Below, piece by piece: positions 36-304 of a stretch of DNA of 304 nt. Position 1 is the stretch's first letter, and each line of letters starts with the position of its first letter. The translations under genes and the position numbers were made by a program. The stretch is from Escherichia coli (GTDB lineage: Bacteria > Pseudomonadota > Gammaproteobacteria > Enterobacterales > Enterobacteriaceae): the NCBI RefSeq assembly GCF_003334255.1, contig NZ_QOWU01000270.1. The stretch is one strand, 5' to 3'. Under the pieces are notes generated by a model. That model was not told where the DNA came from. It saw nothing but the letters and a program-made list of their open reading frames with translations, and did no database searches.

Positions 36-304
36 CCACTGCTGGATAAGCTGCGTGAGCAGTACGGGGTCGGACCGCTATGCAGCGAACTGCATATTGC
101 CCCGTCAACGTATTACCACTGTCAGCAACAGCGACATCATCCGGATAAACGCAGTGCCCGTGCGCAGCGCGATGACTGGCTGAAGAAAGAGATACAGCGC
201 GTATACGATGAGAATCATCAGGTATACGGTGTGCGTAAAGTCTGGCGTCAGTTGTTACGGGAAGGAATCAGAGTGGCCAGATGCACTGTGGCACGTCTCA
301 TGGC
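30..304 (+). CDS. 5' part of IS3-family orfB (DDE transposase catalytic subunit; N-terminal linker and HTH_21-like region only), continuing beyond the window
   Basis: Uninterrupted open frame from ATG at 30-32 (second in-frame ATG at 33-35) to the window end: 91 complete codons, checked codon by codon. This frame is also open upstream to position 3, consistent with entry by -1 frameshift from orfA. The DDE catalytic residues would lie downstream of this window. Confidence 0.9.
   Translation, partial: MMPLLDKLREQYGVGPLCSELHIAPSTYYHCQQQRHHPDKRSARAQRDDWLKKEIQRVYDENHQVYGVRKVWRQLLREGIRVARCTVARLM

Follow-up and report, generated by a model that had tools for sequence, protein, structure and literature searches.

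A partial HTH_21 domain in the OrfB reading frame of an IS629-type insertion sequence from Escherichia coli

The stretch of E. coli DNA analyzed here (the window, 304 nt) comprises the overlap between orfA and orfB of an insertion sequence, together with the start of orfB. On the plus strand, frame 3 runs without a stop across 100 codons, and stops occur in all other frames. The 3' end of orfA is read in frame 1 and terminates at a TGA stop (nt 31-33), which is overlapped by the ATG ATG at nt 30-35 that forms the start of the OrfB frame. Consequently, frame 3 lies at -1 with respect to the upstream ORF. The numbering of OrfB residues starts at the first Met of this frame, residue n occupying window nt 30+3(n-1) to 32+3(n-1), and OrfB residue n corresponds to residue n+108 of the frameshifted OrfAB protein. 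The following features lie within the window:

nt 1..104, plus strand: ALIL frameshift-stimulating pseudoknot (RF01497), its 5' end cut by the window start; from Rfam
nt 1..33, plus strand: 3' end of orfA in frame 1 (...KAEFDRLWKK, TGA stop at nt 31-33); from translation
nt 30..137, plus strand: start of OrfB and first three-helix unit, helices being predicted for residues 2-12, 14-20 and 25-36, and the motifs GV.P.C..L and APSTYY; from AlphaFold2 (AF2) and conservation
nt 132..158, plus strand: short indel-prone connection between the helical units, OrfB residues ~35-43; from column occupancy in alignment A2 and AF2
nt 156..212, plus strand: predicted helix 1 of HTH_21, OrfB residues 43-61, carrying the near-invariant R44 and D48; from AF2 (block pLDDT 91-98) and conservation
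nt 168..302, plus strand: frame 3 match to HTH_21 (PF13276) over model positions 2-47 of 60; from Pfam hmmscan
nt 225..260, plus strand: Y-G-x-R-K motif (Y66, G67, K70), leading into predicted helix 2 (residues 68-77); from conservation and AF2
nt 279..302, plus strand: predicted helix 3, a putative recognition helix (residues 84-94), with the near-invariant R89-L90-M91; from AF2 and conservation

The gene plan is that of the IS3 family, with orfB in the -1 frame of orfA, an ALIL stimulator, and RefSeq coding sequences labeled "programmed frameshift". The ALIL element scores 97 bits in the window (gathering score 50, E 3.8e-26), and a closely related copy of the insertion sequence, L001, gives a full-length match at 118 bits. 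All pairings of the element are intact. Stem I joins nt 3-7 with 15-19, and stem II joins nt 65-69 with 100-104, 76-77 with 98-99, and 79-85 with 90-96, while the apical-loop/internal-loop interaction comprises 6 bp between nt 9-14 and 70-75. Two pairs depart from the Rfam consensus: pair 10/74 is U-A in place of C-G, both sides having changed, and pair 11/73 is U-G in place of U-A. The ALIL pseudoknot stimulates -1 frameshifting; it became known first from IS3411 and has been described for at least 27 other insertion sequences (PMC5009743).

According to the conserved 5' part of the ALIL model, UUAUUUUGC, a U_UUU slip site lies 4-7 nt upstream of window nt 1. For the -1 slip there are two candidates, namely TTTTG, 4-7 nt upstream of the window (L001 2491-2500), and the A-run AAAAAAT at nt 25-31. 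RefSeq/PGAP fuses the two reading frames at TTTTG in protein P0108 (...AYF/GEGGVRPPLEKMMPLL) and at the A-run before the orfA stop in protein P0091 (...FDRLWKK/MMPLL). The use of these junctions is inconsistent, and the two resulting variants of OrfAB are distinguished by 11 residues. Frameshifting in IS629 presumably uses both TTTTG and AAAAT, and a 2006 paper is said to have described "two frameshift products" of this element. The ATGA arrangement formed by the start codons at nt 30-35 and the stop at nt 31-33 could also allow OrfB to be produced alone by translational coupling. In work cited in PMC5771124, the OrfB protein of IS629 is described as reducing transposition frequency.

When 5,426 complete E. 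coli genomes were searched by megablast, 3,597 of them proved to contain matches, at 22,928 places in total. The best of these are identical at 303 of 304 positions and annotated as "IS3 family transposase | AL1L pseudoknot". The same picture emerges from 72,556 plasmids, whose matches come predominantly from Escherichia and Shigella. In neither collection was a fully identical copy found (best match, 303/304). The reference copy L001 (NZ_CP060061.1) contains the region corresponding to the window at 2501-2804, inside a CDS at 2207..3420 annotated "IS3 family transposase, programmed frameshift". At the protein level, essentially identical sequences of 404 aa were recovered and, among the matches listed, one with 100% identity (rounded) bears the name "IS3-like element IS629 family transposase". 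IS1203 and IS3411 are isoforms of IS629 (PMC3271280). The window resembles all three in its orfA/orfB overlap in the -1 frame and its ALIL pseudoknot, without any difference of substance.

Small differences nevertheless distinguish the window from its closest relatives. Compared with the closest DNA matches it differs at nt 40 (Leu13 in the window, Gln in L001), and compared with the commonest IS629 protein (P0091/P0108) it differs at OrfB residue 64 (nt 219-221), which is Gln in the window and Lys there. The window joins Leu13, as in the commonest IS629 protein, to Gln64. Because these two residues are combined and no identical copy was found, the window looks, from sequence comparison, like a minor mosaic or variant of IS629 subtypes.

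The preliminary description of the window proposed, from motif shape, an HTH_21-like region at nt 183-304, and the profile search bears this out. A hmmscan of the window translation against Pfam-A gives HTH_21 (PF13276) with an independent E-value of 6.9e-15 and 55.5 bits at frame-3 aa 56-100, and this family, which had been anticipated, is the sole significant Pfam match of the 100-aa translation. The domain thus stands, but its start has to be moved: the profile match begins at nt 168, 15 nt upstream of nt 183, and predicted helix 1 begins at nt 156. Both peptides quoted at the time are placed exactly, with KKEIQRVYDENHQVYGVRKVWRQLLREGIRVARCTVARLM being the frame 3 product of nt 183-302 (nt 303-304 form a partial codon) and QQQRHHPDKRSARAQRDD being encoded in the same frame at nt 123-176. 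At its other end, the domain breaks off with the window, at model position 47/60. The copy L001, which is 99.7% identical, continues it for 13 residues (39 nt) more and yields a complete match (model 2-60/60, 4.2e-18). In the window, nt 168-302 encode the first ~45 of the ~58 residues of the HTH_21 domain.

The wider transposase assignment is provided by the NCBIfam model NF033516 (IS3 family transposase), which matches residues 8-100 of the window translation at E 8.4e-21 over profile positions 89-175 of 369. The score of this fragment, 74.6 bits, lies under the whole-protein cutoff of 160, which is to be expected when only 100 aa are supplied to a model of 369 positions. The OrfB frame of L001, in turn, reaches 315.5 bits against the same cutoff. 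This frame, which comprises 305 aa if its start is set at the equivalent of window nt 3, was also used to read the downstream architecture, which therefore describes a relative identical at 303 of 304 nt and not the flanks of the window itself. Its Pfam matches are HTH_21 at residues 56-113, rve at 136-232 (7.7e-26), and rve_3 at 227-287, with an additional match to rve_2. In this near-identical copy HTH_21 is thus located directly N-terminal to rve in the same polypeptide, and the order HTH_21, rve, rve_3 agrees with the expectation that an rve domain would follow once downstream sequence was included. The description of the domain as lying at the OrfB N-terminus is imprecise. It starts about 43-47 residues into OrfB, behind another conserved three-helix unit, and in the frameshifted OrfAB it occupies a mid-protein position, about residues 155-212 of 404.

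Conservation was assessed against a very large family, a phmmer search having retrieved 73,599 homologues at E <= 1e-3 among 1.84 billion representative proteins. The best 120 direct protein matches are near-identical E. coli copies; the diverse homologues were drawn from a 50%-representative search. The resulting alignment, A2, contains 46 representative homologues of 43-63% identity and the query, 47 sequences in total. The Y-G-x-R-K and RLM pattern from which the domain was originally recognized proves to be nearly invariant at this level of divergence. In the first motif, Y66 is kept in 43/47 sequences, G67 in 46/47, and K70 in 44/47, while R89, L90, and M91 of the R-L-M motif are each present in 45/46. 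Between them, L75 is retained in 42/47 and R84 in 42/46. Residues further upstream, namely V14 (43/43), C18, Y28 (46/47), R44, and D48, are as conserved as those of the motif. D136 and D195, which represent two catalytic D positions, are invariant or near-invariant.

The AlphaFold2 model calculated from A2 has a mean pLDDT of 90.2 and a pTM of 0.83. Its N-terminal third consists of six helices (residues 2-12, 14-20, 25-36, 43-61, 68-77, and 84-94), and the same six helices appear in a separate AF2 model of residues 1-120. The second triplet (43-61, 68-77, and 84-94) coincides with HTH_21, with a block pLDDT of 93-98, and the last three residues of its third helix fall outside the window. The first triplet is contained in the NF033516 profile match at positions 89-175, and no significant Pfam family was assigned to it. 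OrfB residues 2-36 have the look of another small HTH-type unit, ahead of HTH_21. HTH_Tnp_1_2 was considered as the identity of this upstream unit and rejected, since its match to aa 21-70 (E 0.088) is not significant.

The position of the flexible segments also has to be revised. A basic linker had been placed at nt 123-176, corresponding to residues 32-49. Its central part is supported: residues 37-42 are mostly loop in the AF2 model, with no regular helix save a three-residue turn, and the region is prone to indels, the A2 columns for residues 35-36 and 41-43 being filled in just 23-27 of the 47 homologues. However, residues 32-36 end a helix and residues 43-49 form the start of HTH_21 helix 1, and about half of the proposed linker consists of helix residues. 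In the model, the long flexible linker corresponds to OrfB residues 95-131, which follow HTH_21 and lie beyond the window. This segment is predicted to be without regular secondary structure, with pLDDT falling to 55-61 near residues 101-120, and is followed by an RNase-H-like core.

Foldseek matches the full AF2 model to TnsB (ShCAST), IstA (IS21), and retroviral integrases at E-values of 1e-9 to 1e-7, and the matches include a two-domain fragment of HIV-2 integrase with the N-terminal domain (NTD) and the catalytic core domain (CCD). Judging from the model, these proteins would share with the present transposase a small HTH-type helical domain, a flexible linker, and an RNase-H-like DDE core. 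The resemblance has limits, as the retroviral integrase NTD carries an HHCC zinc-binding motif, whereas HTH_21 here is without one. Moreover, the best structural neighbors of the isolated HTH_21 domain are Fur/ArgR/PadR-type winged-helix domains and not integrase NTDs. The Foldseek matches to these winged-helix families extend over 41-50 residues at 1.0-1.9 A with E > 1, and the aligned residues could be those of the first three-helix unit. HTH_21 is consequently predicted, with modest significance, to form three helices resembling winged-helix/HTH DNA-binding domains. Compared by sequence with the PDB, the 305-aa OrfB frame retrieved nothing at E <= 0.01, and hence no solved structure of an IS3-family transposase.

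According to the literature, IS3-family transposases consist of a sequence-specific HTH at the N-terminus and a leucine zipper, which both belong to OrfA, a poorly defined middle, and a DDE core. In IS911, what lies between zipper and core has been called "M" (multimerisation), this function being assigned to a part of it (PMC2909936). In IS2 it is known as the "middle interval", which comprises helices M1-M6 (Lewis et al. 2011, PMC3219604). A single middle-interval mutant of IS2, V179L in helix M5, disrupts binding to the right inverted repeat (IRR) and abolishes transposition (PMC3219604). Its authors present an alignment of M4-M6 to the helices at the N-terminus of retroviral integrase and read V179L as disturbing "functional architecture" rather than a DNA contact (PMC3219604).

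In order to relate this mutation to the window, an IS2 copy with a fused OrfAB of 408 aa was used as a reference (L002). All 25 IS2 residues named in the paper match L002: the 14 that precede the frameshift agree exactly, and the 11 that follow it are offset by -1. Because of this complete agreement, V179 of the paper can be identified as the Val of YGYRRVW. The HTH_21 match of IS2 covers residues 171-211 (Pfam, 3.8e-10), and BLASTP pairs YGYRRVWALLRR of IS2 with YGVRKVWRQLLR of the window protein. According to this sequence pairing, V179 of IS2 corresponds to V71, encoded by the codon GTC at nt 240-242, at the start of predicted helix 2. The V179L mutation of IS2 is, to our knowledge, the only loss-of-function mutation in HTH_21, and it is now placed on a specific codon of the window.

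IS2 OrfAB is comparable to the protein of the window in possessing HTH_21 and in having six helices between zipper and core (M1-M6 in IS2, six in the AF2 model). Residue mapping and helix count together suggest that M4-M6 are the three helices of HTH_21. IS2 differs from IS629 in other respects, with ~25% identity overall, membership of another IS3 subgroup, and a different frameshift region. The L002 sequence itself (580-1806 of NZ_OP038272.1, a Shigella sonnei plasmid) carries OrfA and OrfB of IS2 in one 408-codon ORF, so that no frameshift is needed and this copy would express transposase constitutively.

Taken as a whole, the window very probably encodes, at nt 168-302, most of the HTH_21 domain of an IS629/IS1203/IS3411-type transposase, a domain that would support binding of the transposase to the ends of the insertion sequence. 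The following course of events is envisaged. The ALIL pseudoknot (nt 1-104) would stimulate -1 frameshifting into the frame that encodes HTH_21. In the resulting OrfAB, the domain would be located between the OrfA-derived N-terminal HTH and leucine zipper on one side and the catalytic core on the other, with Y-G-x-R-K predicted to lead into helix 2 and R-L-M predicted to sit in helix 3. In near-identical copies, the OrfB frame passes a linker of low confidence and then enters the DDE (rve, RNase-H-like) catalytic core. HTH_21 may then help to keep the transposase stably bound to the IS end, either by contacting DNA or by holding the architecture of the protein. By analogy, its role would resemble that of the N-terminal domain of retroviral integrases, which likewise precedes the core. 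Experimental support comes solely from IS2, where V179L is the best evidence that end binding and transposition would need an intact domain. This substitution could also act by destabilizing the IS2 protein.

The choice between contacting DNA and holding architecture leads to the alternative that survives best, although it is unlikely. HTH_21 may be HTH-like in fold only and serve mainly as a multimerisation or scaffolding module of OrfAB/OrfB, not in contact with DNA. A truncated OrfAB[1-149] of IS911 requires region "M", between zipper and core, for specific DNA binding (PMC2909936), but this region may equally correspond to the first three-helix unit. The wording chosen for V179L by the IS2 authors (PMC3219604) points toward scaffolding, Pfam calls the domain only "HTH-like", and the fold matches are modest. 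In the literature, no report of direct DNA binding by HTH_21 was found for any IS3 member. On the other side, the best structural neighbors are all DNA-binding winged-helix/HTH domains, and predicted helix 3 presents the conserved basic residue R89, after R84, as expected of a recognition helix.

A rather improbable reading, and one compatible with the HTH_21 assignment, is that the window belongs to a decayed or truncated copy in which the domain is a non-functional relic. The lack of any identical copy among the genomes and plasmids searched is consistent with this, and IS629-type copies are often partial, with many "partial" entries among the protein matches listed. However, the OrfB frame is unbroken over its 100 codons, all near-invariant residues are intact, the pairing of the frameshift pseudoknot is perfect, and a single base separates the window from intact annotated copies.

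It is less probable still that HTH_21 of IS629-type transposases is primarily a regulatory or protein-interaction surface rather than a DNA-binding one, a reading for which no positive pointer was found. If true, it would concern, for example, inhibition through OrfB/OrfAB hetero-oligomers or coupling to host factors, the IS-excision enhancer IEE being one that works specifically with IS629-like transposases. Finally, a chance motif resemblance in a region that is no transposase domain can be dismissed, as nothing speaks for it, although the earlier call rested on motif shape only, and it is refuted by the Pfam (6.9e-15) and NCBIfam (8.4e-21) matches, the thousands of near-identical IS copies, and the 73,599 homologues.

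With the HTH_21 assignment thus preferred, the window can be compared with the Pfam family as a whole, whose members stand N-terminal to rve in transposases of the IS3 family and its relatives. The window shares the profile match, the site upstream of rve, the YGxRK...RLM pattern, and the predicted three-helix fold, and differs in having only model positions 2-47 of 60. The HTH_21 domain of an IS629-type transposase is an ordinary and already known feature, because it is a catalogued Pfam domain of a common, well-studied insertion sequence. The value of the assignment lies mainly in correct annotation, as the window comes from inside an insertion sequence that is among the commonest in E. coli and Shigella.

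A further observation concerns the genomic setting of the closest copy. In E. coli strain G6/7 (NZ_CP060061.1), this copy is located inside an mcrC-family gene. McrC pseudogene pieces flank it on both sides (1003-2154 and 3462-3602), and a frameshifted McrB-like AAA ATPase adjoins. From the pieces on both sides it follows that the IS629-type insertion disrupted a restriction system at that site.
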